From the IMG/VR virus record IMGVR_UViG_3300007514_000005, positions 8,009 through 72,008 of that record: DNA of 64,000 bases. One strand, written 5' to 3'. The stretch is from a virus. Both the position numbers and the translations under genes were made by a program. Below are positions 2-64,000 of this stretch, piece after piece. The notes beneath the pieces are model-generated. The model was not told the origin of the DNA. It ran no database searches and saw nothing but the letters and a program-made list of their open reading frames with translations. Numbering within the stretch: the stretch's first letter is position 1; each line of letters begins with the position of its first letter.

Positions 2-3000
2 GACTACATAGCGGCGCAGGGAACATTCGGTGGTTTAAGTGCTGTGGTAGGCGATACTACACCGGAATTAGGTGGAGACCTAGATGTGCAGGCTCGTAAG
101 ATTTACACTAGCACTTCAAATGGTGATATAACACTTGAACCCAAAGATAAGGTGATAGTGAAAACGGGAACATCAGGTAATGATGGTTATTTGCAGATTC
201 TAGGTGATGGTAATAATGCTGATGCAAAATTAAGATTCACAAACGGCACTTATGGATGCAACATAATTCTAGTTAGAACACAACCAAATACTCTCAAAAT
301 TGAAGGTTCTTCTTCATTCAAATTCGATTGCCGCACTTCTACTTCGGGCATGACCTTCCCCGATGGAACGACTCAAAACACGGCGGCTACAAGCCTGACT
401 CTTCTTGACGAAGATAATATGGCTACCAATAGCGCTACTGCCGCCGCTTCACAACAGTCAATAAAGGCGTATGTTGATGCTGAGGTTGCGGGTATTGTTG
501 ATTCTGCACCTTCGGCTTTGAATACTCTAAACGAGTTAGCCGCCGCTTTGGGTGATGATGCTAACTATGCCGCCACTACTACTACTGCTCTAGGACAAAA
601 ATTAGTCAAAGCAAGCAACCTGTCTGATTTGACTAACGCGGGAACAGCGAGAACAAACTTGGGCTTAGGGGCGGCGGCAGTAAAGGCTGTTGCTACTGAT
701 GGCGCAGGTGGTGTTGCTGACGGAGAAGCGGGGTTAGTCACAGGTAATGCAGTATATGATTATGTGGCCGCAAACGGTGGAGATAGTAATGCAGGGGCGG
801 CAAATGGTTCAGCGTCCGCTCCCGCCTTTTCATTCTCAGGTGATAACGACACAGGTATGTATTACAAAAGCAACAACACATTAGGGTTCGCCACAGGCGG
901 CACTTTCAGGATGAGTATTGATAACAACGGGCATCTTTTGGGATTAAACAATTTGCATATCGCAGGGTGGGGGTCTTACTCTTACCCCGCTATTACTATG
1001 GGGGGCGACACAGATACCGGAATAGGTGCAGATGGCGCTAACGGACTTTTCATAGGCACAGGTGGTAGCCCACGAGTGAAGATACAAGGAGATGTTGTAG
1101 ATTTCGTGAATTCAAAGATTAAACTTGGTGGTTCATACGGTTCAGATGGGCAGGTTCTCACTTCCACAGGAAGTGGTGTTGCTTGGGAGAACGCAAGTGG
1201 GGGTATATCCGATATTGTAAGTGATACATCACCACAGTTAGGTGGTAATTTGGATACTCAAGGGTATTACATTCAAAGTAGCACTTCAAATAAAACGGTA
1301 ATAAAACCCGGAGCGGGAAGCGGAAATCCTCAAGTTAGTATCGGAGATGATAGCAACAATCCCGGCATTTTGAGAGTAGGTAGTAATGGGGTGGATAACG
1401 CACTACCCCTTGCTGTTAGCGTCAAGAATTCATCTAACAGCGCACAACAGACCGCCGCGTATTTCTTAGCAGGTAATCAACACTCTTCCGCAAGGGCGGC
1501 AGGATTTGGGCCTAAGATAGAATTTAGGGCTTCTTCCGGCACGCAATATAGCGGCCAAGTATCGGCTACAATAGGCACTAAACAAATAGGAACAGGAGAG
1601 TCAGCAAACCACGACCTACACCTTGAGGCAGGTGGAACAGGTAAAATTAGGTTTAATGACGAATTTTCATTCCCTGCGGCTGATGGTTCTAGCGGCCAAG
1701 TGTTGCAGACCGATGGTTCAGGAACATTGTCTTGGGCGACAGCAGGCGGCGGAGACTCTTGGGGAACGGCGGTAGATGCTCATATTATTCCTGATACTGA
1801 TAACGCATACGATTTAGGTTCTTCTAGTGCTGAATTCAGAAATGGTTATTTTGACGGAACATTGTATTGTGATGGAATAGATTTGCAAGGCAACATTACC
1901 GCGCCTAACTCAGATATTACCATAACAGGTGGTGGGCCTCAAGCAGATAGAGCACACATTAAATTACCTAATGCAACAACCGGAACGCTTCAGATAATGG
2001 GAAATTCCTTACAAAATTCTAACATAGACATTGATACCCGTTATTCATCAGGCACAGGACAAATTAGACTCAAAACTAAAGGCTCAACAAGATTCGCTGT
2101 TGGTGCAGATGGAGACTTACTAATTGGTGGAAGTGCGGCAGGTTCTTCCGGTCAGGTATTGACTTCCGGTGGTAGTGGGTCTGCACCCTCTTGGGCTACT
2201 CCGAGTGGTAGTCCGGGCGGAAGTGATACTCAATTGCAATATAACAACGGTGGCGCTTTTGGTGGAATAACAGGTGTGACTTATGATGACTCCAATGGTA
2301 GGTTATTCTTAGACTCTACAAGAGTAGTTATTGGTGGGTCTGCTAATTATGCTAATGGTCTTACAGTAAATGATGAAGCACAAATGCGAAATACAGTCAA
2401 GTTTGCTGACGGTTCTGCTTCTGCCCCTTCTATTACTCGATGGAATAATGGTGATGATAATACAGGTATTTACTTTGTTAATCCTGATGTAATAGGCTTT
2501 ACAACAGGCGGCACTTCAAGAATGACTATTGCGGCTGATGGAACGGTAAATATCACAGGTTCTTTGACTGTTCAGGGGTCTTCTGTTGGTGGCGCAAGCG
2601 CACTTACCGACCTTTCTGATGCGCTCGTAGAAAATAATTCGGTTTGGGTTGGCTCACCCCCTTCTGCAACAAACGGAGCAAGCGATAACACCGCCATTGG
2701 AAAAGGGGCGCTAGATAGTCTCACGACAGGCGACTATAACACGGCAGTCGGAAGGCACGCGCTGAGCGCGGTGACTAGCGGTAATTACAATGTCGCGCTC
2801 GGTTGGTATGCCGCTTCAGAACATAGCACAAGCACAGAAGGTATAGTCGCTATTGGACATAGTGCCGGAAAAACATCAACCGCAAACGGAAATGTTCTAG
2901 TAGGTCATAGGGCTTTGGAAAACGATTCTTCGGGTGGTTCAAACATCGTCATCGGACATTGGGCGGCGCAACAAACCGAAAATATGTGGACGAGCGTGTA

Positions 3001-4735
3001 TTTAGGATATTTCGCAGGATATGGTAATTCTTCTACAAGCAATACAGGGGATAGCAACATCGGTATTGGATACGAAGCACATCGAAACCACACTACCGGA
3101 AGTAGCAATATCGCCATCGGTAAAGCAAGTCTAAAGCAAGCGACTACCGGAACAAGAAATATCGCCATTGGTGAGGGCGCACTAGAAATGCCCAACACCG
3201 AGAATGATAACCTAGCCATCGGTATTGATGCTATGGGTGGTGGCGTCTCAGGTGGAGAATATAATGTAAGCGTTGGTAATTACTCCGGTGGTGCAAACGC
3301 TCTCAACAACCTTTCTGCTGATGAGTCGGTCTTTGTTGGATACAAGGCCGGAAATAAGGTGGAGAGTGGTGGATATAGCACTATGATTGGTGCGTATGCG
3401 GGTCAAGAGGTGACTACGGGTAATTCCCATGTTCTCATAGGAAGAGAAGCAGGACAAAAATTAACTACGAGTAGTGGAGTAGTCGCTATTGGTTATAATT
3501 CAGGTAGATTTGCAACGGGCGCAAATAACACCTTTGTAGGTTATGGGGCAGGAAAGAGAGGAACAGAAGGTAGTAGTCAATCTAACACAGTAGTAGGATA
3601 TAACGCTTTGCAAAGCAATTATGGTAATCAAAATACAATAATGGGTAGTCAAGCAGGTATCTTCATTACATCTTCTATGAATACAATCATAGGAAATAAC
3701 GCCGGAAGAAACCTAACTTCTGATGCTAACACGGCAGTAGGGTCTGATGCTCTTAACGCCGCTCAAGGTGCTGAAAGAAACACAGCAATAGGATACGGTT
3801 CATTGGATACATTGAGCACGGGAGACAAGAACACCGCTTTGGGATACAAGAGCGGAGACGCAATGAATACGGGGTCGCATAACATCACTATCGGAAATGA
3901 GGCCGGAGATAATATCACGAGCGGTTCAGGAAATGTGGTAATCGGAAAGGCTGATGTATCAAGTGCAACAGGCAACGACCAATTATCTATCTCTTCGGGT
4001 GACGGAGATGTGACTTGGCTCACAGGAACAAGCGCAGGTGTAGTGGATATTCCCGGCTCTTTGACGGTAGCAGGTGCGTCTGTTGGTGGTGCTTCTTCTG
4101 CCCATGTGATTAAGACTGCGGGTGTAAATTGGTATGGTAGTCAGCAGGCTGATATACGACTTACTTCCCTTCCACCATACGGTGTGAAGGCTATGACTAC
4201 TTTCACTTTCAGCACTTCAGGAGATTACGATAAACCTATCTTCTTCCCCTTCGTTGCTCCAAAGACGGGCAACCTTAGCAGGATGAATTCGTATGCTCAT
4301 AGCGGCGCAACAGGACTAAATTTGCTTGTTGCAGTTTATAGCGACCACAACGGATACCCCGCTTCACTACTTTTCAAAGGAACAATGGATTGGTCGAGTG
4401 GTGGGAATAAAACCATTACATCATTCACAGACGCAAGCGGCAACAGCGTCACTCCTTCTTTAACGAAGGACACCCAATACCATGTAGGTTGGGTTAGAGA
4501 CGACAACGGTGTGGCTTACACGGCCTATGTCTCAAATGGGCAATACGGCCCTTCTTCCGGTCTTAACTTGAACATGGCCGAAGCGTATGTGGGTGTATCA
4601 GACACCATTGGGCAGTATGGGGGGTCAAGCAATGTGTTGGCTACTTCCTACAATAGTGGAAGCCCCGATTGGGATGATTTCACTTATTTCAATGCGTCTG
4701 TTAAGCCGATTAACTTTGGAATTAAATACGCATGA
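2..4735 (+). CDS. Long tail fibre / adhesin (5'-truncated by window edge)
   Basis: Frame is open from position 2, so the ORF-track start at 44 is internal. Fibre motifs DSAPSALNTLNELAAALGDD, DT(S/T)P(Q/E)LGG(N/D)LD and repeated G-x-x-GQVL-x-S/T-x-G-x-G-x-x-x-W, plus many ~14-aa N-x-A-I/V-G-x-x-A repeats of YadA-head/beta-roll type. Followed by a fibre chaperone. Confidence 0.85.
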   Translation, partial: DYIAAQGTFGGLSAVVGDTTPELGGDLDVQARKIYTSTSNGDITLEPKDKVIVKTGTSGNDGYLQILGDGNNADAKLRFTNGTYGCNIILVRTQPNTLKIEGSSSFKFDCRTSTSGMTFPDGTTQNTAATSLTLLDEDNMATNSATAAASQQSIKAYVDAEVAGIVDSAPSALNTLNELAAALGDDANYAATTTTALGQKLVKASNLSDLTNAGTARTNLGLGAAAVKAVATDGAGGVADGEAGLVTGNAVYDYVAANGGDSNAGAANGSASAPAFSFSGDNDTGMYYKSNNTLGFATGGTFRMSIDNNGHLLGLNNLHIAGWGSYSYPAITMGGDTDTGIGADGANGLFIGTGGSPRVKIQGDVVDFVNSKIKLGGSYGSDGQVLTSTGSGVAWENASGGISDIVSDTSPQLGGNLDTQGYYIQSSTSNKTVIKPGAGSGNPQVSIGDDSNNPGILRVGSNGVDNALPLAVSVKNSSNSAQQTAAYFLAGNQHSSARAAGFGPKIEFRASSGTQYSGQVSATIGTKQIGTGESANHDLHLEAGGTGKIRFNDEFSFPAADGSSGQVLQTDGSGTLSWATAGGGDSWGTAVDAHIIPDTDNAYDLGSSSAEFRNGYFDGTLYCDGIDLQGNITAPNSDITITGGGPQADRAHIKLPNATTGTLQIMGNSLQNSNIDIDTRYSSGTGQIRLKTKGSTRFAVGADGDLLIGGSAAGSSGQVLTSGGSGSAPSWATPSGSPGGSDTQLQYNNGGAFGGITGVTYDDSNGRLFLDSTRVVIGGSANYANGLTVNDEAQMRNTVKFADGSASAPSITRWNNGDDNTGIYFVNPDVIGFTTGGTSRMTIAADGTVNITGSLTVQGSSVGGASALTDLSDALVENNSVWVGSPPSATNGASDNTAIGKGALDSLTTGDYNTAVGRHALSAVTSGNYNVALGWYAASEHSTSTEGIVAIGHSAGKTSTANGNVLVGHRALENDSSGGSNIVIGHWAAQQTENMWTSVYLGYFAGYGNSSTSNTGDSNIGIGYEAHRNHTTGSSNIAIGKASLKQATTGTRNIAIGEGALEMPNTENDNLAIGIDAMGGGVSGGEYNVSVGNYSGGANALNNLSADESVFVGYKAGNKVESGGYSTMIGAYAGQEVTTGNSHVLIGREAGQKLTTSSGVVAIGYNSGRFATGANNTFVGYGAGKRGTEGSSQSNTVVGYNALQSNYGNQNTIMGSQAGIFITSSMNTIIGNNAGRNLTSDANTAVGSDALNAAQGAERNTAIGYGSLDTLSTGDKNTALGYKSGDAMNTGSHNITIGNEAGDNITSGSGNVVIGKADVSSATGNDQLSISSGDGDVTWLTGTSAGVVDIPGSLTVAGASVGGASSAHVIKTAGVNWYGSQQADIRLTSLPPYGVKAMTTFTFSTSGDYDKPIFFPFVAPKTGNLSRMNSYAHSGATGLNLLVAVYSDHNGYPASLLFKGTMDWSSGGNKTITSFTDASGNSVTPSLTKDTQYHVGWVRDDNGVAYTAYVSNGQYGPSSGLNLNMAEAYVGVSDTIGQYGGSSNVLATSYNSGSPDWDDFTYFNASVKPINFGIKYA

Positions 4736-8097: not shown

Positions 8098-9021
8098 ATG
8101 AAAAATATGGCTAACGAAACATTGGAACAGATATTAAATGTAAGTGCCGCAGACGGGCCGTTCTCGGTCGGAGATGCGGTTCTTGAGCAGACTCTTAGAG
8201 ACTTCATTCAATTGCAGTCTAACACAATCGCAATCGCTACTGACCTAGTCGGTGTGCGCTCAGTAAATTGGCTTGAATTCAAGTGGTATTCGGGAATTAC
8301 CGGAACATTTGATTGGCCTTTGGATGATGTAGCACTAACTGACCCAACAAAGGTAGGAACAGAAAACTACACCACAAAATTGGAGAAGGGTCAGGGTCGT
8401 GTGACCTTCCTAGACGCTGTGAGACTACGCGGCGAGTCATGGGAGAACATTGACCGACAGCAATTGGCTATCGTCCGCGCTCGCGCTGATGTAATAGACA
8501 ACACCATTCTAAAGGCTCTAGTAGCAGGTAGCGGAAACACCGATATTGCGGCTACACAGACCTTCGGACACGCTTCCGCAGACGAGGAAGGAGACCTACT
8601 AAAGTGTATGGATTCAATCTTCGCTAACGGTAAGGTATCAGGCAACGAGCCTCTTGCTCTAGTCCTTCCTGCCGACAAGAGAAGCGCTATCCTCAACACA
8701 ACCCTTTACGGAAATGTTGTTGAGTCGCTAGGCGACCACTTGGCTCGCATTGCTTCACTACGAATCTACTACACCCGTGATTACGGAACAGGCGGCGCAA
8801 TCGGCAACGATGCACTAATGCTAATTCCGGGCGCTGAGACTGCTGAATTCTTCACCTACAACGGTGAGGGCTTCACCGAGACCGAATTAACACGAATTCC
8901 GGGTCTAGGTTATGATTGGCTACTCACTTCCTACATGGGAACGGTTATCCACGAACACCAAGATGGTGCGGCGAGCGGCAAGAACAACAGAATGGTTAAA
9001 CTAACAGGCGTGCGCTCTTGA
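8098..9021 (+). CDS. Major capsid protein (HK97-fold, putative)
   Basis: ~305 aa, canonical position after protease and decoration genes, GGAG RBS. Confidence 0.75.
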   Translation: MKNMANETLEQILNVSAADGPFSVGDAVLEQTLRDFIQLQSNTIAIATDLVGVRSVNWLEFKWYSGITGTFDWPLDDVALTDPTKVGTENYTTKLEKGQGRVTFLDAVRLRGESWENIDRQQLAIVRARADVIDNTILKALVAGSGNTDIAATQTFGHASADEEGDLLKCMDSIFANGKVSGNEPLALVLPADKRSAILNTTLYGNVVESLGDHLARIASLRIYYTRDYGTGGAIGNDALMLIPGAETAEFFTYNGEGFTETELTRIPGLGYDWLLTSYMGTVIHEHQDGAASGKNNRMVKLTGVRS

Positions 9022-32459: not shown

Positions 32460-32498
32460 TAAACCACCATATCTTCTATTCGCATATAAACCTGCGTA

Positions 32499-34742
32499 TC
32501 AAACCCACGCAAGGTGTCCTAATCCCTGCTGTGCATTCAAAAGCGGTTGAATAGACCACTTCATCAGGTCGTAGTAGGGTTGGACTTTCTTGACTACGAA
32601 TCTTTCACATAGAATATCGTATCCAACATTTACTATGCCGTCTATATCAGACGGCTCATCGAAAGCAATGTATTTTCCTTTATCATCAAGAGTCACCTTG
32701 AAGAATGAACCAATACTATACCCCTTACCTAAATTCTCATTGGCCCACGCCGCTCCCGCGCTTGGGCCGGACAGAACCTTGTAATCACTAATCTTCTTCT
32801 CTAACTTTCCTTTCATACACAATTCCTCTACGGGTGTATTCTTGTTAATTATCCCATCAATTATGGGTATGAGCATATCATTGACTTCCTCTTCTTCTTT
32901 GTTGTCGAGTATCATACCTATGGTCTTACTCATTACCTCTTTCATTATGGGGGGCATCCTTGACTGCTTCATTTCTATACCCTTAATATATAGTGAGGGT
33001 GTTTGCGCTTCACCATCGGCCCATGTGACTCTACCTGCGTATCTATTCTTAGCCATGAGAACCATACTACTACACCACTTCTCAAATTCTACTTCTATGG
33101 GTTTCATTTGAGCGTTAATAGAGGCCATCAATTGCATTCCCTCAAGCGGACTACCTATTTCACAAAACACGCTGTCTGTGTGGCCGTATAGCACCTTACA
33201 GCCCGCTTCCTCAGCCAAGTCCTTGAGCCTACCTAATGTATCCCTTGAAGTGTAGGTAATTGCTGACGCAATCTTGGGGTGGTAAAGACCATATTTGGAA
33301 TCGCCCGCTACCCCATACATAGAAGCAACGAGAGTCTTAGCGGCAAATTGCATGGTATCCCATTTCGCCTTTCTCTCACCATCACTTACAATCATCTTCG
33401 TCTTGAATTCATTACGAAGGTTAGTCATCTTATCCATCTGTCTAACAAGAATACCCTTTTCGTCTTGTGAAAAACAAGTGCCGTTGCCGCAATCCTTTCC
33501 TTCTTCGTCTAGTGTATCCCAAGAAATGTTGTATAGGTCTGCGTTGCTATGATACATTGCTTTAATGTCTAAAATACCCACATTATTGTAAAGCCCCGCC
33601 TCTACTTCCATCACATCTGCTCCCTCATACGGTTGGTAATCAAATTGAGGGTTAGTAGGTATGCGCACCTTGTTATCCTCATCCATTAACACAAGGTTGC
33701 TGAACATCTTGGTAATGAATGGTGTTGAGCGAATGTCGCATTGCACAATGTGTTGTAGAGAAGTAAAGTAATCAAGCGCATTTACTTTAGCGTCTAACTT
33801 TGGTAGTAGTCGCACATCTTGGCGACAATAATGTATGTATAGAGGAAGGTCTGTTAGGTAGGTATCGTGTCCGTCCGGCAATTCTACCTTCTTTTCCTTT
33901 AGGACTTCCCAAGACACATCATCGAGTTTGTATGAAGGTAGTTTTCCGTTCTTCAATTCCCACAGTTTAGAGAAGGCTAACATCAAGTCTATACAATTCC
34001 TACCAACAATGGGTTGCTCCCAATCCTTGTAGGAGTAGTGTAGTCTGCGCATAGGACTCATCATTGTAGGTTGTATGCCTACCGCCCTGCACCTTTCGAC
34101 AATCACCTTAATGTCTGCCCCGACCACATACCATCCGGTAATTATGTCGGGGTCGTGCCTATCCATGTGGCGTAGAAAGTGTGTAAGCATCTCCCTCTCA
34201 GAAGGGAAGCCCATTGCAGGTATCTCGTATTCGTAATCTCCGAATTCGTAATACTGAGTGGTCTCTTCAAGAGCGGAATTAACAAACCAAACATACTCAG
34301 ACTTAGTGAAAGAGTCATACACTACTATAACCCTTAACTTATTGGTTGTTGGACTCCACTCGCAATCTAAATACCAAGTCCTGTGCTCGTATTGCTTGAA
34401 GGGCGTATGCCCATCCTTAATGCGGTCTGTGAGGACTCTATTAACGAAAGGAATGTTCGCTTCCCATGTCTGTATGTTAGGGTAATCCTTTTTGAAATCG
34501 TAAATCTGTTGCGGAACGGCGACTGCTATTTTTGTTAGAGACTCGCCATACACCCCTTCGTAGCCACGCTCTTTGGCTAAACATTGTATCCCTGCGGCAT
34601 CAGAATCTTTGACGAAAAAGTAGGGTCTGTAATTATCTATCTTAGTCTCTATTCTTTCGCCGTCTGAATCTCGGTGTCTTACAATGACTTGTCTGCCTCT
34701 ACTCTTCGTCACTATCATAGTCGCCGCACCACCTATACACAT
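32499..34742 (-). CDS. polB: Family B DNA polymerase
   Basis: Exo I YLDCE; DIKAMYHS, K-x-x-x-x-SMYG, YGHTDS and KNRY polymerase motifs; likely start MIVTK (34718). Confidence 0.95.
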   Translation of the reverse strand: MCIGGAATMIVTKSRGRQVIVRHRDSDGERIETKIDNYRPYFFVKDSDAAGIQCLAKERGYEGVYGESLTKIAVAVPQQIYDFKKDYPNIQTWEANIPFVNRVLTDRIKDGHTPFKQYEHRTWYLDCEWSPTTNKLRVIVVYDSFTKSEYVWFVNSALEETTQYYEFGDYEYEIPAMGFPSEREMLTHFLRHMDRHDPDIITGWYVVGADIKVIVERCRAVGIQPTMMSPMRRLHYSYKDWEQPIVGRNCIDLMLAFSKLWELKNGKLPSYKLDDVSWEVLKEKKVELPDGHDTYLTDLPLYIHYCRQDVRLLPKLDAKVNALDYFTSLQHIVQCDIRSTPFITKMFSNLVLMDEDNKVRIPTNPQFDYQPYEGADVMEVEAGLYNNVGILDIKAMYHSNADLYNISWDTLDEEGKDCGNGTCFSQDEKGILVRQMDKMTNLRNEFKTKMIVSDGERKAKWDTMQFAAKTLVASMYGVAGDSKYGLYHPKIASAITYTSRDTLGRLKDLAEEAGCKVLYGHTDSVFCEIGSPLEGMQLMASINAQMKPIEVEFEKWCSSMVLMAKNRYAGRVTWADGEAQTPSLYIKGIEMKQSRMPPIMKEVMSKTIGMILDNKEEEEVNDMLIPIIDGIINKNTPVEELCMKGKLEKKISDYKVLSGPSAGAAWANENLGKGYSIGSFFKVTLDDKGKYIAFDEPSDIDGIVNVGYDILCERFVVKKVQPYYDLMKWSIQPLLNAQQGLGHLAWV

Positions 34743-55060: not shown

Positions 55061-55525
55061 TCAGACCCACCCCTGCTCAATCGCAAACAACAGGTGGTGA
55101 GAGACCCATAGCCCTGAGTCCTCAATCTCGGTCGGGCATATCCATATCATGTCGTCATGCTCTTCCGAGAGCACGACCTTAGACACATCAAGCCCAACGA
55201 ATTCAATGAAGTAGTATTGCTTATCCATCTCTTTGTCTATGTGGAATCCCAATTCTTTAGCGGGCATAGAAGCGGTGAGTCCTGTCTCTTCTTCTAACTC
55301 AATTATGGCGCATTCCATTGGTGTCTCTCCTTCCTCTAATTTGCCCCCTGCTAATTCGTAGAGGCCAATACAGGAAGTCTCCATAGGCGAGCGCCGGAGT
55401 AGGAGAATACGGCCCTCAGCATCACGCACAACGCACCCTGCCGCTTTCCTCACTAATCCCACCCCCTTGCTTTCAATTCCTTGTGTATCTCTCTTCCTCT
55501 TACGCGCGCGTGAGGGCTGACCCAC
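55061..55525 (-). CDS. Nudix hydrolase (MutT-like)
   Basis: Nudix box GGKLEEGETPMECAIIELEEETG; LSEEH. Confidence 0.9.
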   Translation of the reverse strand: MGQPSRARKRKRDTQGIESKGVGLVRKAAGCVVRDAEGRILLLRRSPMETSCIGLYELAGGKLEEGETPMECAIIELEEETGLTASMPAKELGFHIDKEMDKQYYFIEFVGLDVSKVVLSEEHDDMIWICPTEIEDSGLWVSHHLLFAIEQGWV

Positions 55526-55638
55526 TCAATGAGGTAGTTATCCTCATCTATGAGTCTGAGCACTAAGCACGCGGCTAATTCGCGCACTAGGTTCAATCTT
55601 TCTTCGGGCATCTCCGGTGTATGTGTATCTTCTACCAT
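55453..55638 (-). CDS. Small hypothetical protein
   Basis: ORF track; overlaps the Nudix 5' end, so boundaries are uncertain. Confidence 0.35.
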   Translation of the reverse strand: MVEDTHTPEMPEERLNLVRELAACLVLRLIDEDNYLIEWVSPHARVRGREIHKELKARGWD

Positions 55639-55936
55639 CTAGGCCTGTATTCGTGAATCGAGGACTTTCGAATGTCCATTTCGGACATTCGATTTTCCAC
55701 AGAATTTTTGCCTCTATCTTTCTTCTACGCGCACGCGCGAGGCGGCGGTGCAACGGGCATCCCCCTATAAACCTGCCGCAAACCCCCCAAATTAGCCCAA
55801 AAACGGCATTTGTAGCCAACAAAAACGACCACGCAAGCCCAAAATCGCTAGAAGGGGTCATAGAGCCATTTGTTTGCAAAACAGGTCATTACCTACCTGC
55901 GACCCCCTCTCGTGGCTATATATACGCTTAGAGACC

Positions 55937-56073
55937 ATTTGTAGCAAAGGCGATTTGTAGCAAGAGGATTTGTAGCGAACAGAAAAAAATTGTAGCGAAG
56001 AGATTTGTAGCCATGAAAATTTGTAGTGAAGAAATTTGTAGCCTTGAAAATTGTAGCCAACAAAATTTGTAGC
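55937..56073. repeat. Nine tandem direct half-sites A(T/A)TTGTAG(C/T) at 15-16-bp period
   Basis: Copies at 55937, 55953, 55968, 55988, 56003, 56019, 56034, 56049, 56065. Confidence 0.95.
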
Positions 56074-56164
56074 CACCGGACGCGGGCGCGCGGGCGCGCT
56101 TCGCTACAAATTGGTGCTTGAGAGGGCGAATCGGAAGGTTTATTAACTACCCCTATGTCTCACA

Positions 56165-56575
56165 ATTTGCCGCTCCTGTGGAGTGGTGTGCGTGACGGCG
56201 CGCGGGTATTGGTTGCTCGGAGACGGGTAGCCGTGTTGAGTCGGAGTCTAACGGGGAGACTCGGTAGTAGGGGAGTCGGGAGACGACCCGCGCTTAGGCA
56301 ATCTAACCGAGAAGAAAGTAAGACAACGCACTTCCGAACGGGAGCGGTGATTTGAGTAGGACTTGAAAGGATTACACTCGGCTGAAAAAGGGAATAGAGC
56401 CTACTCAATGATTGAGGGCAGGTCTGCTTCGGCGGACTTCGGTAGCACCGCACGCAGGGAAGGACTGCGCCCACCTTACGAGGACGCCTACGAGCCTTCA
56501 CCACTATATGATGCGTGATGCGCCGAGACACGGAAGTTAGAGGCTCGCGCCTTCGTCCGAGAACCAATATCCAAA
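56165..56575 (+). ncRNA. Candidate large structured ncRNA 1 (~410 nt)
   Basis: Promoter ATCGGAAGGTTTATT at ~56130; helices 56170-79/56338-47, 56204-21/56556-72, 56352-60/56400-08; UUCG hairpin 56421-36; no credible ORF. Confidence 0.7.
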
Positions 56576-56591
56576 TTTAACGGTGAAAGAA

Positions 56592-57020
56592 TCAAGCGCA
56601 CTTCGCGCAGACTACTCTCATTGGGTTGCTCGTAATATCCGCTTGCTTTACTTTTCTAGCGGTTGTCGCGGGTGCATTTTCGTTGCACCCAACACATACG
56701 CCTGTGCTACCGCGTAGCATCATCATAACAGGCGCGGCCTGAATGAATCCGGTCAAGTCAATTACTTTCACGGGTGTAGGAATGTTCTCTTTTCGGAGCA
56801 AGCGCCGCATCTTGTTGAGTCGGTGGTTCTCGCAGGTCGTTTTATGGCTTCGGCCTTTTATCGCTCCACAGCATTCGTGCCTCTCTCGTCCTTCCGAGAA
56901 TCGCCCGTTGCTTTTTCCGGTGCGTGCCTTGCTCTCGCCTGTGGCCTTGCCGCCCTTGCGACCTGCCGCTTGCTTTTGCTTGTCTGTGGCCTTGAATGTG
57001 CCGTCCTCATACCTGCGCAT
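56592..57020 (-). CDS. Basic protein with KGG motif and Cys/His clusters
   Basis: Start placed at 57020, just after the cassette-type promoter GACCGACAGGTTCATAAG (57060-57043); AAGRKGGKATG, CCG...H...C, CVGC...CAKC. Confidence 0.7.
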   Translation of the reverse strand: MRRYEDGTFKATDKQKQAAGRKGGKATGESKARTGKSNGRFSEGRERHECCGAIKGRSHKTTCENHRLNKMRRLLRKENIPTPVKVIDLTGFIQAAPVMMMLRGSTGVCVGCNENAPATTARKVKQADITSNPMRVVCAKCA

Positions 57021-57098
57021 AATAGGGTCACGCGGGCATTTGCTTATGAACCTGTCGGTCATCGAAAGGTTTAAGTGCAAACGCCTCTCCCCTCAATT

Positions 57099-57475
57099 TG
57101 TAAGTCGGCGGGGAACTGAACACTCCCTGCCTTGAAGCCATCGAGAACGCATGAGTGCATACGAGCGCCCTTCGGGGAAGCGACATGACGCAAGGCCCAA
57201 TGGCGGGTCGCGTGGAGACAACCAAATAGGGGGAATCTGCGAGCGAGTTAGGACTACCCTATCGGTGGCGAGGCAAAAGGGAGCGAAATAACGAAAGCCG
57301 TGAAGACGAACCGCACCTGCCTTGAGATGGGTTAGCGCCCATCTCTCGTAGGTTGCCCTCAACGGGGGTGAAGGTCGGGGTTGTTCAACCCGTCAGACTT
57401 GGTGCGAAAAGACCCGTCTCGGTCTCGCCCACCTTGCGGAAGGGTGGAGAACAGGAGCGAGGCGGGCAACCCATT
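57099..57475 (+). ncRNA. Candidate large structured ncRNA 2 (~380 nt)
   Basis: Promoter ATCGAAAGGTTTAA at 57061; AAGTCGGCGGG (57102) pairs with CCCGTCAGACTT (57389-57400); hairpins CCC-TTCG-GGG, GAGATGGG/CCCATCTC, CCACCTT/AGGGTGG. Confidence 0.6.
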
Positions 57476-57916
57476 ACTAATAAAGGTAAAAGAACCGCGC
57501 AGAAATTGTAGCAAGGACAAAAAGTGCGTGGGGATTTGTAGCCATGAGAATGTAGGCCCGCCAATTTGTAGCGAGCGGCGGGAGACAGGGGGTTAATAAA
57601 CCTTTTCTTTTAGGGGTAATTTGTAGCACACTCGGTGTGCCGCAAAACACCTACCCTGCATATCACACTAAGTGCATTTTCTACACCTACTTTCAAATTT
57701 GTAGCAAGTTTTTTTCACGCACCGGATAAAATTTGTAGCAAAGACTTTTTTGCGCGCGCAAAAATTTGTAGCAAAGGGCGAAAAACCGCCAAAACACTAC
57801 AAATTTGTAGCAAAGAGGCCTTTTTCTCATATATAAACAAAATTGGCTACAAATTTGTAGCAAAGGGGGGAATAAGCCACCGACAGGTTCATATAGGCAC
57901 ACCCTGTCCGCTAAAC

Positions 57917-58195
57917 ATGGACTACCACAAGATAGAGCCGGAACAAAGCGAGCAAATGAAGAAATTGCAAGCGATAGAGGATGCGGGAGAGTGTGCGAGC
58001 CTGACTTGCATAGAACACTTCTGTATGGTATGCGCGCGTAAAGGAATTGTAGGGCGTATAGTAAAGGGATGGAGAATTTGCGAAGCAAGCAAACTCTACA
58101 AGGCGCAATTACACATTGTTGCCGACTGTGAAAACTGCGGTGAGATTATGCACTTCAATTGGATAGACCGAGACAAGATTGAGGGGGGGTATTAA
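57917..58195 (+). CDS. Cassette ORF, Zn-binding (92 aa)
   Basis: Start after promoter CGACAGGTTCATATA; CMVC...CENC; the ORF-track upstream extension runs through repeats. Confidence 0.7.
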   Translation: MDYHKIEPEQSEQMKKLQAIEDAGECASLTCIEHFCMVCARKGIVGRIVKGWRICEASKLYKAQLHIVADCENCGEIMHFNWIDRDKIEGGY

Positions 58196-58200
58196 ATACT

Positions 58201-58320
58201 ATGACTGAGTGCGAAGAGTGTGGAAAAAAGGCGACCGTGAAAACATGGAGCATGGGAGACGAGATTTACATTGAGGTTTGTTGCGTGTATTGCAACCTGA
58301 CCGCCGCCTACGGTCTTTAG
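58201..58320 (+). CDS. Cassette ORF, Zn ribbon (39 aa)
   Basis: MTECEECGKKATVKTWSMGDEIYIEVCCVYCNLTAAYGL*, followed by a T-run. Confidence 0.65.
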   Translation: MTECEECGKKATVKTWSMGDEIYIEVCCVYCNLTAAYGL

Positions 58321-58451
58321 TTTTTTAGGGCGCAAAGAAATTTGTAGCAAACGCTTTTTCAACAGGGGGGATAACACACGCTACAAATTTGTAGCAAAGG
58401 GAAGAATGGAAGAGCGACAGGTTCATAAGGGCAAGCCTCTTCGGTCTAATC

Positions 58452-58631
58452 ATGCTAACAAGGAAGCATTACCAAAAGATTGCCGCCGCTATTGCGGCAG
58501 TTGATGACCCACAAGAGAAAGCCACAGCATATATGACGGTGATAGATATGTGCCGAGAGTCGAACCCAAGATTTGACGAGGACAAGTTTTGGGATGCGTG
58601 CGACTTCCCTGACGGGTTCAGGATTGAGTGA
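58452..58631 (+). CDS. Cassette ORF, small phage protein of the M-x-TRK-x-Y...NPRFD-x-x-x-F-x-x-AC type (59 aa)
   Basis: Hand translation; promoter CGACAGGTTCATAAGGG at ~58414. Confidence 0.75.
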   Translation: MLTRKHYQKIAAAIAAVDDPQEKATAYMTVIDMCRESNPRFDEDKFWDACDFPDGFRIE

Positions 58632-58632
58632 G

Positions 58633-58764
58633 ATGAGAGCGCCAACCTACGAAGAGTTTAAGGCCCACATTTGGCCCGCTTGGAGTGAGAAGGGGCAGAC
58701 CGAGCACGAGTGCGAAGAGGCCTACCTGTGGTTCATTCGCGGGCGCAGGTCTGTGAGGTGGTAA
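58633..58764 (+). CDS. Cassette ORF (43 aa)
   Basis: MRAPTYEEFKAHIW...; followed by a hairpin plus T-tract. Confidence 0.6.
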   Translation: MRAPTYEEFKAHIWPAWSEKGQTEHECEEAYLWFIRGRRSVRW

Positions 58765-58919
58765 GCGGGGGCGTTGCCCCCCTTCCCCTTTTTTCTATAC
58801 TCCTGAAAAATTTGTAGCAAAGAGGGCGTGAGGCGGTTGTGCCGTAGGCTACAAATTTGTAGCGAAGAGAAGAATGCTTGACCGACAGGTTGATAAGGGG
58901 AGAGCGAGTGGAGTAAAAT

Positions 58920-59153
58920 ATGGCGACAGTCATTGAGGACGAACAACCGGAAGGAATTATAGAAGCGAAGATGGGCAAGCAGGATAGCCTGTGGGTAGAT
59001 ACCCCACGCGGTCTCCTGCACATATTCGTGCGTGGAGACGGCACATGGAAGATGACCGCATGGAACAGCGGCGGTAAGAATGCACCCAAGATTACTAAGA
59101 GGAAGAAGAAGGGGCGCACCTACTACCACCTAAGCCAAGTCTTGAACGAGTGA
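58920..59153 (+). CDS. Cassette ORF (77 aa)
   Basis: Promoter GACCGACAGGTTGATAAG at 58880; downstream GGGGC-GAAA-GCCCC terminator-like hairpin. Confidence 0.75.
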   Translation: MATVIEDEQPEGIIEAKMGKQDSLWVDTPRGLLHIFVRGDGTWKMTAWNSGGKNAPKITKRKKKGRTYYHLSQVLNE

Positions 59154-59340
59154 TTACGCAACAAAGAGAAGGGGGGCGAAAGCCCCTCTTTTCTATACCC
59201 GTGAAAAATTTGTAGCGAAGAGCGTAAAGCAAAAACACCGACTGCTACAAATTTGTAGCATAGAGAGCGTAAAACGAGGGCGCGGTTGGCTACAAATTTC
59301 ATACCGACACCCTTAAGTAGTCACCCCCCCTGCGACAAAC

Positions 59341-59682
59341 ATGGAGTTAGCAATACAATACGACATAGAAGCGACAGCAATGAACCGCGTTGAAGAGGGA
59401 GCAATGGAGAGCGAAGCAGATTTCTTCACGGGGGCAATGGCTATGTATTTGGCTCTCAAGCCGAAGAGTGAGGAAGATGGGTCGTGGTGTCCGCCTTCTT
59501 GGATATTCACTCTCATGGCGGGAGATAGTATAGTCGAGAAAGTAAGGGAAGAAGACGAGGCCGCAATGGAAGCAGACAGGCAGATGGAGAGGGCCGAGAT
59601 TGCGGCTGAGAACGCTTACGATGCACAGCGCGAGATTAGCGCTGAGATGTGCTATGACGACAGGTATGACGATTACTACTGA
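59341..59682 (+). CDS. Cassette ORF, acidic (113 aa)
   Basis: Promoter-like CCGACACCCTTAAG at ~59304; downstream hairpin GGGCGGGA/TCCCGCCC. Confidence 0.75.
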   Translation: MELAIQYDIEATAMNRVEEGAMESEADFFTGAMAMYLALKPKSEEDGSWCPPSWIFTLMAGDSIVEKVREEDEAAMEADRQMERAEIAAENAYDAQREISAEMCYDDRYDDYY

Positions 59683-59872
59683 TTGAGCGGGCGGGAAGGC
59701 ATCATCCCGCCCCTCTTTCTATCGCTGGGATAAATTTGTAGCAAAGGGGGAATGAAACGCGCGGACATGAGGCTACAAATTTGTAGCGTGCTGAGCGTGT
59801 GTGAGAAGAATGGTCGGTTGGCTACAAATATCCTATCGGTGGGTTTAATAGGGGAAGCGTCTAGGGCGGTAT

Positions 59873-60205
59873 ATGTCTAACAGACGGGGAAACCGGAAGC
59901 ACAACCGCGACAGGTTTGAGGGCGCACGCCTAAGCGACTCGGAGCGAGTCGAGTGCGCTAATCTCATGGATAGCATACGAGCGCGCAAGCCTCAGCAATT
60001 CCGTGCAGGGCGAGACCTATTGGTTGTGTTGAAGGATACAGGAAAAGTAAGAGAAGTGGAAGGAAGCAGGGGCGATATGATTTGCTGTATAGTGCGCGGC
60101 GGTGTCGAGCACACTTGGATGATGCGAATGAAGTCTCAAGTCATGGGCAAGAGTGCGAAGGGATGCAAGCAAAAATTGCGAGTGGATAAAATTCTTTGGG
60201 CGTGA
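59873..60205 (+). CDS. Cassette ORF, basic (110 aa)
   Basis: Promoter TCGGTGGGTTTAATA at ~59836. Confidence 0.75.
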   Translation: MSNRRGNRKHNRDRFEGARLSDSERVECANLMDSIRARKPQQFRAGRDLLVVLKDTGKVREVEGSRGDMICCIVRGGVEHTWMMRMKSQVMGKSAKGCKQKLRVDKILWA

Positions 60206-60394
60206 AACAAATACCCCTCTTGATTTGTAGCGAAGATTTCTTTAGCGCCTACAAAAATTTGTAGCGAACACACATGGGGAAGGTGAATGCGCACGGGCTA
60301 CAAATTTGTAGCCAACACACCGCAGAAATACAGCGCGGCTTTGCTACAAATTCGCAATCGAAAGGTTTAATACCCCACCCCCCTTCCCCTAAAT

Positions 60395-60830
60395 TGTAGG
60401 TCGTTGCCGACCTATGTTCCCCTACGGGGGGGCGGGTGCTCATTGGAGTCAGGTGGCGTTGAAACGCATCATAAGCCCGTGCAATGCTCGCAGAAGATTC
60501 GCGGGGTTGGAAACACGGGGGGATGGTCTGCCTTACGACTCTTGTTGAACGGGGTTCTCTTCTAGCGAAGTCGCGCTTGCGCGGCCTCTCCTACGGAGAT
60601 TAAATACGCGGCGGTGTCGCCCCAATTATTCGGGAGTCGAGGGCAGGTATCGAGGGTGTGTAGTGTTAGGAAGAAAGGAGTTCGCAGGTGAAACACCATA
60701 AGTCTGAATATGTAATTCGCGCGCGTGGCTTGGCTTCAATAGTATGGAAAGCGGGGGTCGCGCGCCCCTGTCCTCTCGCAAAGAGGCCACCGCTCGGCAG
60801 GGCGGCCCAACATAGTCGGCACGGCTTACA
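60395..60830 (+). ncRNA. Candidate large structured ncRNA 3 (~436 nt)
   Basis: Promoter ATCGAAAGGTTTAATA at 60357; 5' TGTAGGTCGTTGCCGACCTATGTT pairs with 3' AACATAGTCGGCACGGCTTACA; two C-TACG-G hairpins and a CTTG-loop hairpin. Confidence 0.75.
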
Positions 60831-61181
60831 CCTTTAGTTTTATCGCTATAAAATTTGTAGCGAATTAAGTTCGTTGTTTTTCTCGCGCGCTGAAAGAATA
60901 AAACGCATGACTGCTCCAAATTTGTAGCAATTCTTTATTTCCTTCTATTATGTTTTAGAGTAATGCCCTTTCTATAACTACTATTGAAAGAATAGAATAA
61001 ATACAAATTTGTAGCGCAGTAGCCCGAATAATTCTTTTTCCTCTTTTCAGAATTATTGAAAGAATTACTACAAATTTGTAGCCAACCGTCTGTTGTGGGC
61101 CTTCGCGCGCGTCACCCGTGACGCCCTTTGCTACAAATTTCACATCGGCAGGTTCATAAGGGGAGACCCACTCGGTTGAAC

Positions 61182-61382
61182 ATGGACAAAAAGCAGAAGC
61201 GCTACATTGAGCGCATTGTTATGGCGGGCCTAAGAATGATTGGCGAGAACGATGAGGGAGAGCCGTTGGAGACCTTCGGCGACCTCTTCAAAGAGCATGA
61301 CGCGGTGATGGCTCTTCTCGGTCTTGACGAAGAGTCAAACCTTGTTTTCGGTGAGGAAGCAATACTGAAAGACCCGCAATGA
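61182..61382 (+). CDS. Cassette ORF (66 aa)
   Basis: MDKKQKRY..., after promoter ATCGGCAGGTTCATAAGGGG (61144). Confidence 0.75.
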   Translation: MDKKQKRYIERIVMAGLRMIGENDEGEPLETFGDLFKEHDAVMALLGLDEESNLVFGEEAILKDPQ

Positions 61383-61662
61383 GGGGGGGCGCGCACCCGC
61401 TTATAATGTTTTCTTTACCCCGTAAAAATTTGTAGCAAAGAGCACTTCTTTCTTTGTGCGCACCGCACACGCGGGCCGTTGCCTACAAATTTGTAGCGAA
61501 GAGCGCTTAACCCCTACGCCCTTGCGCCTTACTGTATCAGACTACAAATTTGTAGTGAATGGTGCGTCTGTTGCGCCCCCGCGCGTGCGTCACGGGTGAC
61601 TTCGCTACAAATAAAACCTTATAAGGGGATACCCACTCGGATAGAATAAGGAGCGAAAAAAT

Positions 61663-61812
61663 ATGTATGTATATGGCTTAGGAGACGAACAAGAACGACA
61701 TAATATGTGGGATGACGAGGATTTGTGGAAGGAATGCCCCGATTGCGGCGCATTTAACTTCGTGGAATACTGCGGCGGGGCTGACTGCCTGACCTGTGGT
61801 AAGCAGTATTGA
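61663..61812 (+). CDS. Cassette ORF, Zn ribbon (49 aa)
   Basis: ...KECPDCG...DCLTCGKQY*; AAGGAG RBS; downstream GGGG-GCAA-CCCC hairpin. Confidence 0.7.
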   Translation: MYVYGLGDEQERHNMWDDEDLWKECPDCGAFNFVEYCGGADCLTCGKQY

Positions 61813-61887
61813 GACGGATGGGGGGCAACCCCCTTCCCTCTTTCTTCACATCGGTAGGTTTATAGGCAGACGCCTACTCGGTTAGAA

Positions 61888-61973
61888 TGGTGGTAGCCAC
61901 TCCGCCTGTTAGCGCAGGTAGCAAGGTGAGTGCGGTTCGCGCGGACTGCGGGTGCAAATCCCGATACCGCCAC
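61888..61973 (+). ncRNA. tRNA-like RNA (acceptor stem + T-arm, non-canonical middle)
   Basis: GGTGGTA (61889-95) pairs with TACCGCC (61965-71) plus discriminator A; CGGG-TGCAAAT-CCCG T-arm; own promoter CATCGGTAGGTTTATAGG; T-tract after. Confidence 0.6.
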
Positions 61974-62153
61974 ACTTTTCTTTACCCCTAAGAAATTTGT
62001 AGCGAAGCGACCGTCTGTTGTGCGCGCGCAAAAGCGTCACCCGTGACGGCTACAAATTTGTAGCCAACCCCACCACAGCCCGCCGCCCGCGCGGTAAAAC
62101 CCCCCGCTTGGCTACAAATAAAAGATTATAAGGGGAGACCTGCTCGGTTGAGC

Positions 62154-62267
62154 ATGGACGAACCACGCCCATGCGTAAGAGACATGATGAATGCGACAGG
62201 AATGAGTAGAGAGGAAGCAGAAAGGGAGTATGAGGCAATGCTTTACGCAAAATACTGCCCGCGTTGA
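62154..62267 (+). CDS. Cassette ORF (37 aa)
   Basis: MDEPRPCVRDMMNATGMSREEAEREYEAMLYAKYCPR*; promoter GATTATAAGGGG...CTCGGTTGAGC-ATG. Confidence 0.65.
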   Translation: MDEPRPCVRDMMNATGMSREEAEREYEAMLYAKYCPR

Positions 62268-62542
62268 GCGGACTTGTCTTGCGCTTATAGTCTTTTTCAT
62301 ACCCCATAGAAATTTGTAGCCAAGCGAACCACCTTCTCGCGCGCGGCACGCCCGCACCGATATAACCTACAAATTTGTAGCGTATCGAGAAGCAAACAAG
62401 CGCGCGTATTCTTCTTACGGTGTATTGACTACAAATTTGTAGTCTGCCGTGTTTGCGTGCGCGCGTCACGCGCGTTTAAGGTTTGCTTCGCTACAAATAT
62501 CTATGTCGGCAGGTTTATAACCCCTAACCCCCTCGTCTAATC

Positions 62543-62656
62543 ATGGAAGAGAAGTGGGAAGTCGAGGAAATGTATTACGACAAGCAATACGAGCAATGGC
62601 GCGTTGTTCTACGCAACACAGACACAGACGAGACCCGATGGGGCTATGTCGAGTGA
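62543..62656 (+). CDS. Cassette ORF (37 aa)
   Basis: MEEKWEVEEMYYDKQYEQWRVVLRNTDTDETRWGYVE*; promoter TCGGCAGGTTTATAA. Confidence 0.65.
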   Translation: MEEKWEVEEMYYDKQYEQWRVVLRNTDTDETRWGYVE

Positions 62657-63309
62657 GCGGAGCGCGTTTGCGCTTATAATCTTTTCTTTAGCGCTGATAA
62701 ATTTGTAGCCAAGCGTCTTTCTTTCTTTTTCCCGCGCGCGTCCAGACCACACACCCTACAAATTTGTAGCCTGTCGAGCGTTAAGACAACGCGCGCTTTT
62801 TGTGTAAAGGTTAATAGACTACAAATTTGTAGCGAAGTTAGGTTAAACAAAGGCGCGCGCCCTTAACCCTTATACTCTTTGCTACAAATTTTACTGCGCG
62901 TGGGTCTCCCCTTCCTTCCTATTTATCCGTGTAGGTGTAAGGATATAAACCTTACGGTTAAAGAAATTTGTAGCCAAGAGGGGTTAAACAAAACGCGCGC
63001 GTGCGGGGTAAGGGGGGTTGGGCTACAAATTTGTAGCGTATCGAACCCCCTTCAGAAAAAAGAGTGTAAAGGGAACGCGCCCTTAGTAGGCTACGAATTT
63101 GTAGCGTAGGGGGCTACCCCCTTACGCGCGTAAAACAAAAACAAAGGGGGCTACAAATTTGTAGCCAAGATACCTACAACAAAACAACCGCGCGAAACAC
63201 AAACGCGCTACGCTACAAATTTGTCGCTTGTTGTAGTAGAAAAAATAAATCGCTTCGCTACAAATACGCAACCGATAGGACTATAAGGGCGGGCCTACTC
63301 GCTCTAATC

Positions 63310-63504
63310 ATGCTATACCTAAGCATGGAAGAAGCCGAAGAAATGTATGACGACATGATAGACGAATGCTACGGTGAGGTGAATGTTGGAGTGACCTTCA
63401 ACGCCTCGCGCGTATTGAGGGAGTTAGACCCGATTGCCTACCGATGCGGGTTCAACGACTACATGGACAGCCTGTTTGAAGACGGCTACACCCTAACCGA
63501 CTGA
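63310..63504 (+). CDS. Cassette ORF, acidic phage-type protein (64 aa)
   Basis: YDDMIDECYG...S-x-VL-x-x-x-DPIAYRCG-x-x-DY-x-D; promoter CCGATAGGACTATAAGGG. Confidence 0.75.
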   Translation: MLYLSMEEAEEMYDDMIDECYGEVNVGVTFNASRVLRELDPIAYRCGFNDYMDSLFEDGYTLTD

Positions 63505-64000
63505 TTACGACACGCGCCCGTGTGCGCTTGGACTTTTAAGGATTTCCACATAAGGCGCTTTTTAGAGCGAGCGCGGGAGATTTGTAGCAAGACGCTTTTT
63601 AGGCCTCGCGGGAATTTGTAGCAAAGGCGGTTTTTAAGCCCCCCGAAAATTTGTAGCCAACAGAAAATTTGGTGCTTCGCTACAAATTTGTAGCGAAGAT
63701 ATTGAAAAATCGTAAGTCCTGAATTGAACCTAGAATTGGCTACAAATTTGTAGCAAACCACGATTGCCGAAATTCAAAATCTTGGCTACAAATAGTCAAG
63801 GATTACCGGATTCCGGAAATCTGATGCACAGGCTCGCAGTATAGCGATTCTGAGCAATTCTGAAAATCCGAATCGAAAAACCCCTAAATTTCGCAAATTT
63901 AGCAGGGTCGCCGCCCGCAAAAGTGCGCCAAAAGTGAATTATTCTTGGTAGAAACTCGGAAAAATTGAGACCATTACCGGAATTCGGACAGGCTCGCAGT

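Follow-up and report, generated by a model that had tools for sequence, protein, structure and literature searches.

A candidate structured non-coding RNA downstream of a promoter-like block in a putatively magrovirus-like marine virus

GOLLD and ROOL are large, 'ornate' RNAs of phages and bacteria that have their own transcription and combine conserved cores with variable peripheral hairpins; we know of no function for either. Other abundant, promoter-driven and highly structured viral RNAs include the pRNA of phi29, the VA RNAs of adenovirus and the EBERs of Epstein-Barr virus (EBV), which bind in trans to the packaging motor, to PKR and to La/L22, respectively. Here we describe RNA1, the name used for positions 56169 to about 56575 (+ strand, about 400 nt) of a 64,000-nt stretch of viral DNA, the window, which comprises bases 8009-72008 of the complete 72,008-bp IMG/VR record IMGVR_UViG_3300007514_000005, a virus genome with direct terminal repeats. 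A preliminary description drawn from the letters of the window had proposed a non-coding RNA (ncRNA) candidate of about 410 nt at this locus, with crossing long-range helices. Covariation with a related locus, contigs from RNA libraries, the lack of a conserved open reading frame (ORF) and a promoter-like block favour the non-coding, structured, + strand part of that proposal, whereas the pseudoknot does not survive. RNA1 is very probably a real, expressed and structured ncRNA.

Like GOLLD and ROOL, RNA1 is virus-borne, appears intricately folded and has a conserved core with variable hairpins; it differs from them in being smaller, in belonging to a probable archaeal virus, in having no adjoining tRNA genes and in matching no family model. 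The phi29, adenovirus and EBV RNAs have other sizes, folds and hosts (bacterial or eukaryotic) and no sequence relation to RNA1. Moreover, phi29 needs its pRNA, which is conserved throughout the family of that virus, whereas RNA1 is missing from relatives in which the protein encoded by the neighbouring DUF932 gene is 63-73% identical. Tan1 is described, in the available sections of its report, as a 229-nt ncRNA of marine group II archaea that is very abundant in marine metatranscriptomes and has a complex conserved fold and no known function (PMC5069720). From that description it shares with RNA1 an ecosystem and a presumed host lineage; it is, however, cellular and about half as long, and the likeness is one of description. 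The same sections give lengths of 292-306 nt for the RNase P RNA and 305-315 nt for the signal recognition particle (SRP) RNA of marine group II archaea, both of which match family models (PMC5069720). These archaeal RNAs, which are abundant and stable, resemble RNA1 in length and in the closing stem and branched core predicted here, but RNA1 matches neither model.

Across the whole window, none of the 4227 models of Rfam 15 is matched at its gathering score, and in the region of RNA1, at E up to 10, there are only sub-threshold chance matches (isrB, 17 bits vs 35; H19_3; miRNAs). RF00373 and RF01857 give no match at E up to 10 on 56140-56600 (a 461-nt search space). RNA1 is a genuine ncRNA candidate outside any described family tested.

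The locus lies where gene orientation switches, with leftward genes up to 55.6 kb and rightward small genes from 57.9 kb. About 480 bases without a convincing ORF separate an array of the word TTTGTAGC (55809-56112) from the stop codon of a - strand gene (56592-57020); RNA1 is intergenic and has no + strand ORF on either side. Metagenome contigs were scanned with an alignment of the neighbouring DUF932 protein, giving 10 loci, among which L005 (DUF932 88% identical) aligns to window positions 55742-57919 at 76%, with the DUF932 gene itself at 84%. Identity is unevenly spread. It reaches 85-95% in the 20-nt bins starting at 56245-56325 and in bin 56385, 90% in bin 56455, and 80-85% in the promoter block (56130-56167), whereas 56347-56376 and 56422-56446 are variable and 56477-56555 are barely alignable.

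Three elements, all on the + strand, hold up in this comparison: a pair of 5' hairpins, a long closing stem and a branched core that is conserved. The 5'-terminal hairpin P1 (56169-56187) pairs 56169-76 with 56180-87 in 8 bp including two G.U pairs, and is followed directly by hairpin P2 (56188-56203; 56188-93/56198-203, loop GACG). The 5' strands of the closing stem (56204-56237) comprise those of P3 (56204-14 and 56216-21, with G56215 bulged) and P4 (56231-37), and the 3' strands (56527-56572) those of P4 (56527-33) and P3 (56556-72), with a 22-nt insert specific to the window between them. The multi-branched core (56238-56476) contains a helix at 56260-67/56303-11 and hairpins at 56380-83/56398-401, 56404-07/56413-16 and 56453-57/56465-69. 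Two sites within it vary: a hairpin site at 56347-56376, where sequence and length differ in L005 (40-55% identity), and a GTCTGC-TTCG-GCGGAC hairpin at 56422-56437, where L005 has a 10-nt insertion and a different, longer hairpin; the TTCG hairpin of the preliminary description is thus present in the window and replaced in the relative. Beyond the core, a hypervariable segment (56477-56526; 5-35% identity) is not alignable between the window, L005 and the variants from sequencing runs.

RNAalifold on the window and L005 predicts 72 pairs in the core region 56165-56476, all formed in both sequences, with six both-sided and six one-sided changes; only 4 of 500 column shuffles reach the observed values, and sliding the partners by 1-3 columns leaves no both-sided changes and 29-46% pairing. 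Three of the both-sided changes are solid, at 56175-56181 in P1, 56190-56201 in P2 and 56265-56305 in the core. P1 keeps 8 of 8 pairs in both sequences, with C-G replaced by A-U at 56175-56181; in P2, G-C becomes C-G at 56190-56201 and U.G becomes C-G at 56193-56198; and in the core helix 56260-67/56303-11 the U-A pair 56265-56305 becomes C-G. Despite an identity of only about 35-45% in its 3' strands, the closing stem persists, with both-sided changes of its own (56221-56556, A-U to C-G; 56231-56533, C-G to U-A; 56236-56528, U-A to A-U). The duplex of its cognate 5' and 3' strands is predicted at -40.9 kcal/mol in the window and -52.5 kcal/mol in L005, values reached by 8 of 500 and 0 of 500 shuffled 3' strands, respectively. 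The consensus fold is likewise more stable on the + strand than on its reverse complement (-83.9 vs -54.9 kcal/mol), and one-sided changes give G.U pairs solely on the + strand. These include run variants at 56193 (T>C, in runs X16 and X3), 56330 (A>G) and 56406 (C>T), the latter two turning Watson-Crick pairs into G.U on the + strand only. Pairs kept by compensatory changes on one strand are what a structured ncRNA of any kind would leave, and the two sequences and three run variants give moderate support for a conserved secondary structure on the + strand of RNA1.

RNA1 is present in seawater RNA libraries independently of its flanking genes. Eight of the 20 listed public runs that hold part of 55700-57200 are RNA (X4, X8, X10, X13, X14 and X16-X18; 7-25% of the words of that 1.5-kb stretch). 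Contigs of three RNA runs, from three studies, and of one DNA run were mapped on 55500-57500. The RNA-run contigs cover 56169-56520 (355 nt, no differences from the window), 56185-56476 (308 nt, 4 differences) and 56177-56476 (319 nt, 7 differences), the two variants thus differing at 4 of 292 and 7 of 300 positions. In all three RNA runs the rest of the 2 kb is without cover except for a piece from run X10 at 57104-57266, so that 7, 9 and 5 of 30 bins are covered, compared with 30 of 30 in the DNA run; uncovered parts in RNA runs, and run shares below 0.2, are not counted as evidence of absence or of habitat. Contigs of X10, X16 and X3 all depart from the window sequence after 56476, where the hypervariable segment begins.

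The position of RNA1 raises the question of a role in cis. The 142-aa gene on the - strand (56592-57020), which encodes a zinc-ribbon protein with a basic N-terminal half and a C-terminal pair of CxxC motifs, converges on the 3' end of RNA1, and RNA1 lies between the 3' end of this gene (stop 56592-94) and the leftward operon. A strong rightward transcript could insulate the leftward NUDIX/DUF932 operon from read-through or be antisense to the 142-aa gene, in which case transcription itself or the overlap would count rather than the folded RNA. It fits this picture that no T-run terminator follows the closing stem on the + strand and that the 142-aa gene of relatives without RNA1 is read directly in the direction of the operator array and DUF932. 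Neither task, however, would need internal loops conserved at 85-95% or compensatory changes in five helices, and the contigs of the three RNA runs all end at or before 56520, none extending into the 142-aa gene. We consider a cis-acting or antisense role unlikely, if the least so of the alternatives. A NUDIX hydrolase gene and a 61-aa ORF (55061-55638, -) lie between DUF932 and the operator array in the window and are missing from L005, in which about 100 nt replace about 700.

Upstream of RNA1 are the elements that precede other early units. The word TTTGTAGC occurs 74 times in the window (2.6 expected), clustered at 55.8-64 kb and ahead of each early unit, and RNA1 is, as the preliminary description had it, the first unit after a cluster. 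The presumed operator array upstream of the RNA1 promoter (55809-56112, +) consists of seven exact direct copies and near-copies and is closed by an inverted copy at 56103-56110. Over 55809-63792 the word forms direct arrays and also a 16-bp palindrome, GCTACAAATTTGTAGC, and related viruses carry their own variants of the operator word at the same places (TTTGTAGTA, TTTGTAGGA and TTTGTTGGTAAG), as if regulator and sites co-evolve. The promoter-like block of RNA1 (56130-56167, +) contains CGGA, AGGTTTATTA at 56136-56145 and 22 nt ending in an AAT-containing stretch. It belongs to a series: a 10-nt AGGTTTATAA-type block with CGR in front lies 21-23 nt before the ATG of eight early units, and in three further units (56136, 57067 and 60363) the same spacing leads to TG and no ORF. 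The pattern GGTTTA-N18-22-AATTTG occurs exactly twice in the 64 kb (0.11 expected), at 56137-56169 and 57068-57100, and contigs of RNA runs begin at 56169 and 57104, with further starts at 56177 and 56185.

A search for sigma-70-like promoters found no sites. Archaeal promoters carry a B recognition element (BRE)/TATA element about 26 nt upstream of the start site. Taken together with the archaeal reading of the virus set out below, this points to BRE/TATA elements and leaderless early mRNAs, and we infer that the block of RNA1 is a promoter of this type with its start at 56168/56169, the first base of P1. The eight sites at which a AGGTTCATAA-type block stands 21-23 nt before ATG (57885-63286, +) would likewise fit leaderless mRNAs and archaeal BRE/TATA promoters; the unit at 61604-61666 differs, its leader being 38 nt long and containing AAGGAG. 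Another promoter-like word, AGGTTTATATGCGGATAG (GCGAATAG in one copy), stands at 32493, 37165, 40182 and 41320 (-), upstream of replication-module genes, and may represent a distinct temporal class of promoters.

The same array can be read as a set of iterons, with RNA1 as a pre-primer or R-loop-forming RNA of a replication origin. Direct repeats immediately upstream, a minimum of cumulative GC skew at about 55-56 kb and a + strand with 33% G are in keeping with this. The motif arrays, however, recur before every early unit at 57.5-64 kb, which fits operators better, the skew minimum coincides with the switch in gene orientation, and relatives that have the same array have no RNA1, which therefore is not essential for replication. 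An origin-associated transcript thus seems improbable.

A catalytic or switching RNA with a pseudoknot was the form in which the locus had initially been noticed. Every helix segment named in the preliminary description is found in the window, both by reading the sequence and in a helix scan, which lists 56167-79/56338-50, 56204-14/56562-72, 56352-60/56400-08, 56200-07/56286-93 and the hairpin 56420-27/56432-39; CCGTGTT/GACACGG is likewise read at 56231/56527. The comparison with L005 divides these helices. The pairings 56204-21/56556-72 and 56231-37/56527-33, now the closing stem, are kept with compensatory changes, whereas L005 breaks helix A (56170-79/56338-47), GCGCGGGT/ACCCGCGC and TTGAGTAGG/CCTACTCAA, with pairs lost without compensation at 2 of 10 positions in helix A, 3 of 8 in 56200-07/56286-93 and 4 of 9 in 56352-60/56400-08. 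On alignment A4 the four core helices of that description hold 33 pairs, with 79.4% of cells paired and no both-sided changes, and all 13 unpaired cells belong to L005. Without helix A there is no crossing, and the 5' arm assigned to it pairs locally, as hairpin P1: the change of C56175-G56181 to A-T in L005 preserves P1 and produces an A.G mismatch inside helix A. The H-type pseudoknot as drawn is therefore wrong, and the remainder of that reading is partly supported.

A ribozyme or conformational switch could still be argued from the size of RNA1 and its conserved junctions, and from hairpins with a GGGA tetraloop (56276-56285) and with TTCG, all of them typical of complex folded RNAs; alternative pairings do exist in the window sequence. 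Yet neither helix A nor the competing 56200/56286 helix (3 of 8 pairs broken) is kept in L005, no ribozyme or riboswitch family is matched at E up to 10, and neither joints nor ends suggestive of cleavage are seen in the contigs, which are, however, a weak guide to such events. We regard this alternative as no better placed than an origin transcript.

Neither strand of RNA1 contains a convincing gene. The 66-aa ORF noted in the preliminary description (ORF66, 56155-56355, +) exists, and conservation at the protein level would have spoken for a coding gene; in L005, however, a 1-nt indel and a TAA cut the frame after 17 codons. Neither ORF66 nor a 135-aa ORF on the - strand (ORF135) has a homologue among 5.8 billion protein clusters (for ORF66, four candidates, none of which scored) or a Pfam or PHROG match, and on sequence grounds RNA1 appears to be without a conserved ORF. 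A small basic protein, translated from ORF66 or from its 41-aa part starting at GTG 56233, with the RNA structure incidental or dual, nevertheless deserves mention, since TTG 56167-69 stands at the position of the siblings' ATG in frame with ORF66, and the frame 56233-56355 is open in L005 (49 codons). The differences within that frame are three synonymous and three non-synonymous, conservation and compensatory changes reach 120 nt past the ORF and into P1 and P2, and an Arg/Ser/Gly-rich sequence is what a translated G-rich RNA is expected to give; with the interrupted ORF66 frame and the lack of homologues, these make a protein gene very unlikely. Equally hard to sustain is the view that RNA1 is a decaying GC-rich insertion with chance helices and no function, for, despite chance-level single-sequence statistics, lineage-specific occurrence and pattern scans without a homologue, RNA1 is the best-conserved part of the 2.2-kb region, it covaries, and it is the sole part seen in RNA libraries.

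Several known classes of RNA were considered as candidates and set aside. A group I or group II intron has no model match and the position is intergenic. For a retron msr-msd RNA, which would have a reverse transcriptase gene beside it, PF00078 has no matches in the 72-kb genome (it is found in 3 of 14 control genomes), and for a TnpB/IscB guide RNA (omega RNA, HEARO), which would adjoin the nuclease gene, there is one 16-bit sub-threshold match to PF07282 about 24 kb away and no HEARO match. ARAGORN predicts no tRNA or tmRNA genes in the window. Excision or circularisation through a bulge-helix-bulge motif in the closing stem is not indicated, the internal loops being 9x22 nt in the window and 6x2 nt in L005, with no joint seen; and four substitutions explain a difference at the near-palindrome 56575-56588 as well as a small inversion would.

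RNA1 is an accessory, lineage-specific cassette, known from the window, L005 and near-identical environmental variants. Homologues of the 142-aa protein, at 48-77% identity, are encoded in 10 of 15 related loci (L002, L005-L012, L024 and L025; duplicates of one contig counted). The protein has no Pfam or PHROG match, and a search with it of viral contigs found no related loci. In six of these loci (L006-L011, DUF932 64-67% identical) the operator array abuts the 142-aa gene with no RNA1 insert, and the same holds in L024 and L025 (DUF932 73%). L002 (128-433) and L012 (35-298) carry a shorter form (101 aa) that is inverted relative to DUF932; in the window the gene sits between RNA1 and a second unit, RNA2. 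Other searches for relatives of RNA1 found none: a DNA search of 50,697 phage records with window 55600-57700 gave no match; an RNA1 37-mer had no matches in viral contigs, and a 17-mer had three, all by chance; a two-block RNA1 pattern had six matches in genome contigs, all by chance and inside unrelated genes; a search of genome contigs with the DUF932 alignment found no related loci; and an nhmmer profile of the window and L005, run against the related loci, reached a best E of 0.53, in the P1/P2 region of L024 and L025 only.

Other ORF-less units share the promoter arrangement. RNA2 (57068-57535, +; predicted transcript 57100-57530) has RNA1's promoter pattern, and it is to this unit that the X10 RNA contig at 57104-57266 belongs; RNAalifold with L005 gives 89 pairs and 15 both-sided changes, many of them where the alignment is poor. 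The promoter block also has a leftward copy at 57603 (-), from which transcription would run antisense across RNA2. RNA3 (60363-60855, +; predicted transcript 60396-60850), which follows the same promoter block, is about 460 nt long, with 55% G+C and 32% G, and has TG followed by TAG at the place of the siblings' ATG. L025 carries, on the other side of the 142-aa gene, an ORF-less unit of about 680 nt (2350-3030, -; its start is also in L024) with 49-58% G+C and the same promoter, which opens with a P1-like hairpin in which two one-sided changes keep pairing, and which is otherwise unrelated to RNA1; a loose end at 57079 in DNA run X3 matches the start of this unit. Local alignments among RNA1, RNA2, RNA3 and the L025 unit (z -0.5 to 2.6) reveal no shared sequence. 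Finally, 61856-61975 (+) holds a promoter block and, after it, 89 nt whose predicted fold is a four-way junction that includes a T-arm-like hairpin and an acceptor-like stem of 8 bp; this tRNA-like element (61887-61975; -35.9 kcal/mol, z -1.2) is not called a tRNA by ARAGORN or Rfam, and a 33-codon ORF starts here.

The virus itself looks archaeal. Its family B polymerase (32499-34742, -) has its best full-length matches in haloarchaeal tailed viruses, at 23-25% identity over 86-98% of the length, and other products of the genome are an RFC-like clamp loader, GroEL, tail proteins and a nuclease of the ERCC4/helix-hairpin-helix type. Magroviruses, which are viruses of marine group II archaea, are described as having genomes of 65-100 kb with an archaeal-type replication module and GroEL or thermosome (PMC5434244). 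By that description the virus looks magrovirus-like, and as such its host is probably a marine group II archaeon. A protein of the capsid region (8098-9021) has no match among phage records. Metagenome proteins include 331 relatives of the polymerase at E up to 1e-20, some of them encoded on contigs as long as 65-78 kb, and these form a large group of mostly unnamed marine viruses, one of whose polymerases is mislabelled as a protein of a Legionellales metagenome-assembled genome; closer relatives of the polymerase are found at 84% identity, one of them on a 69.8-kb record with the NCBI protein QDP49822.1.

A plausible scenario is that RNA1 is a stand-alone ncRNA that acts in trans. Transcription would be controlled by the TTTGTAGC operators and start at 56168/9, the exact position at which the sibling units have the AUG of a leaderless mRNA. 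The transcript would fold into two 5' hairpins and a closing stem of 25-30 bp around the conserved multi-branched core, with variable peripheral hairpins, and this fold would make it long-lived, such that it accumulates above viral mRNAs. It would then act early in infection as a protein-binding scaffold or as a decoy for a host or viral factor, in the manner of the abundant structured RNAs known from other viruses. A scaffold or decoy is suggested because loops and junctions are conserved, because RNA1 accumulates relative to its flanks, because it appears to have a regulated promoter of its own, and because it is accessory and rapidly replaced. We advance the stable, trans-acting scaffold or decoy as a tentative proposal, and the scenario as a whole, with fold, start and role together, as the best available explanation, if still somewhat short of an even chance.

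A number of observations weigh against this scenario. In the single sequence the named helices are no better than chance, and the initial observation alone cannot therefore carry the claim: the minimum free energy has a z-score of -0.95 on the + strand, equalled by 18 of 100 shuffles, and of -0.34 on the - strand, the longest helix with G-U allowed is 13 bp (shuffle mean 11.2, sd 1.3, maximum 15), and there are 8 helices of at least 9 bp compared with 9.3 in shuffles (n=100, dinucleotide-preserving). The covariation comes from two full-length sequences from which the consensus was itself derived, such that the controls are biased in its favour, and three of the six both-sided changes, in helix columns 188-192/283-288, lie inside poorly aligned variable segments and are discounted. 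The contigs, taken from Logan, show neither strand, exact ends nor level; all stop short of the 3' part of the closing stem, the one that extends furthest at 56520, and the mature RNA1 may lack this stem; and one of the RNA runs, X4, shares its study with the probable source sample. The start site and the host are both deduced, and the 41-codon frame from GTG 56233 stays open in L005. As to function, neither a partner protein nor a direct functional result speaks for a scaffold or decoy. Two specific roles found little encouragement: for a CsrA-type sponge, GGA occurs 15 times where 11.0 are expected (P 0.09), and for mimicry of or pairing with early leaders, RNA1 has no significant match or complementarity to the rest of the window.

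Marine group II archaea are uncultured, and their viruses, though abundant, are known solely from metagenomic data. In the available sections of two reports on such viruses (PMC5434244 and PMC11706807), non-coding RNAs, promoters and intergenic regions are not mentioned. We tentatively suggest that ORF-less 'RNA cassettes' (RNA1, 57100-57530, 60396-60850 and the tRNA-like 61887-61975) are expressed in magrovirus-like archaeal viruses from the operator-controlled, leaderless-type early promoters that also serve the small protein genes, and out-accumulate the viral mRNAs in the sea, and that they differ between related viruses: the 680-nt unit of L025 is a different one, and such units are missing from more distant relatives. 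If so, these would be the first structured regulatory or decoy RNAs for marine archaeal viruses, and a fast-evolving RNA counterpart of early anti-host proteins. The promoter reading, with an operator array, a BRE/TATA-like block and an ATG 21-23 nt downstream, offers a testable model of early gene control. RNA1 would be a new RNA fold to solve, and, if it is indeed a conserved and highly expressed structured RNA, it would give a handle on the biology of early infection and a sensitive in-situ marker of active infection in metatranscriptomes.

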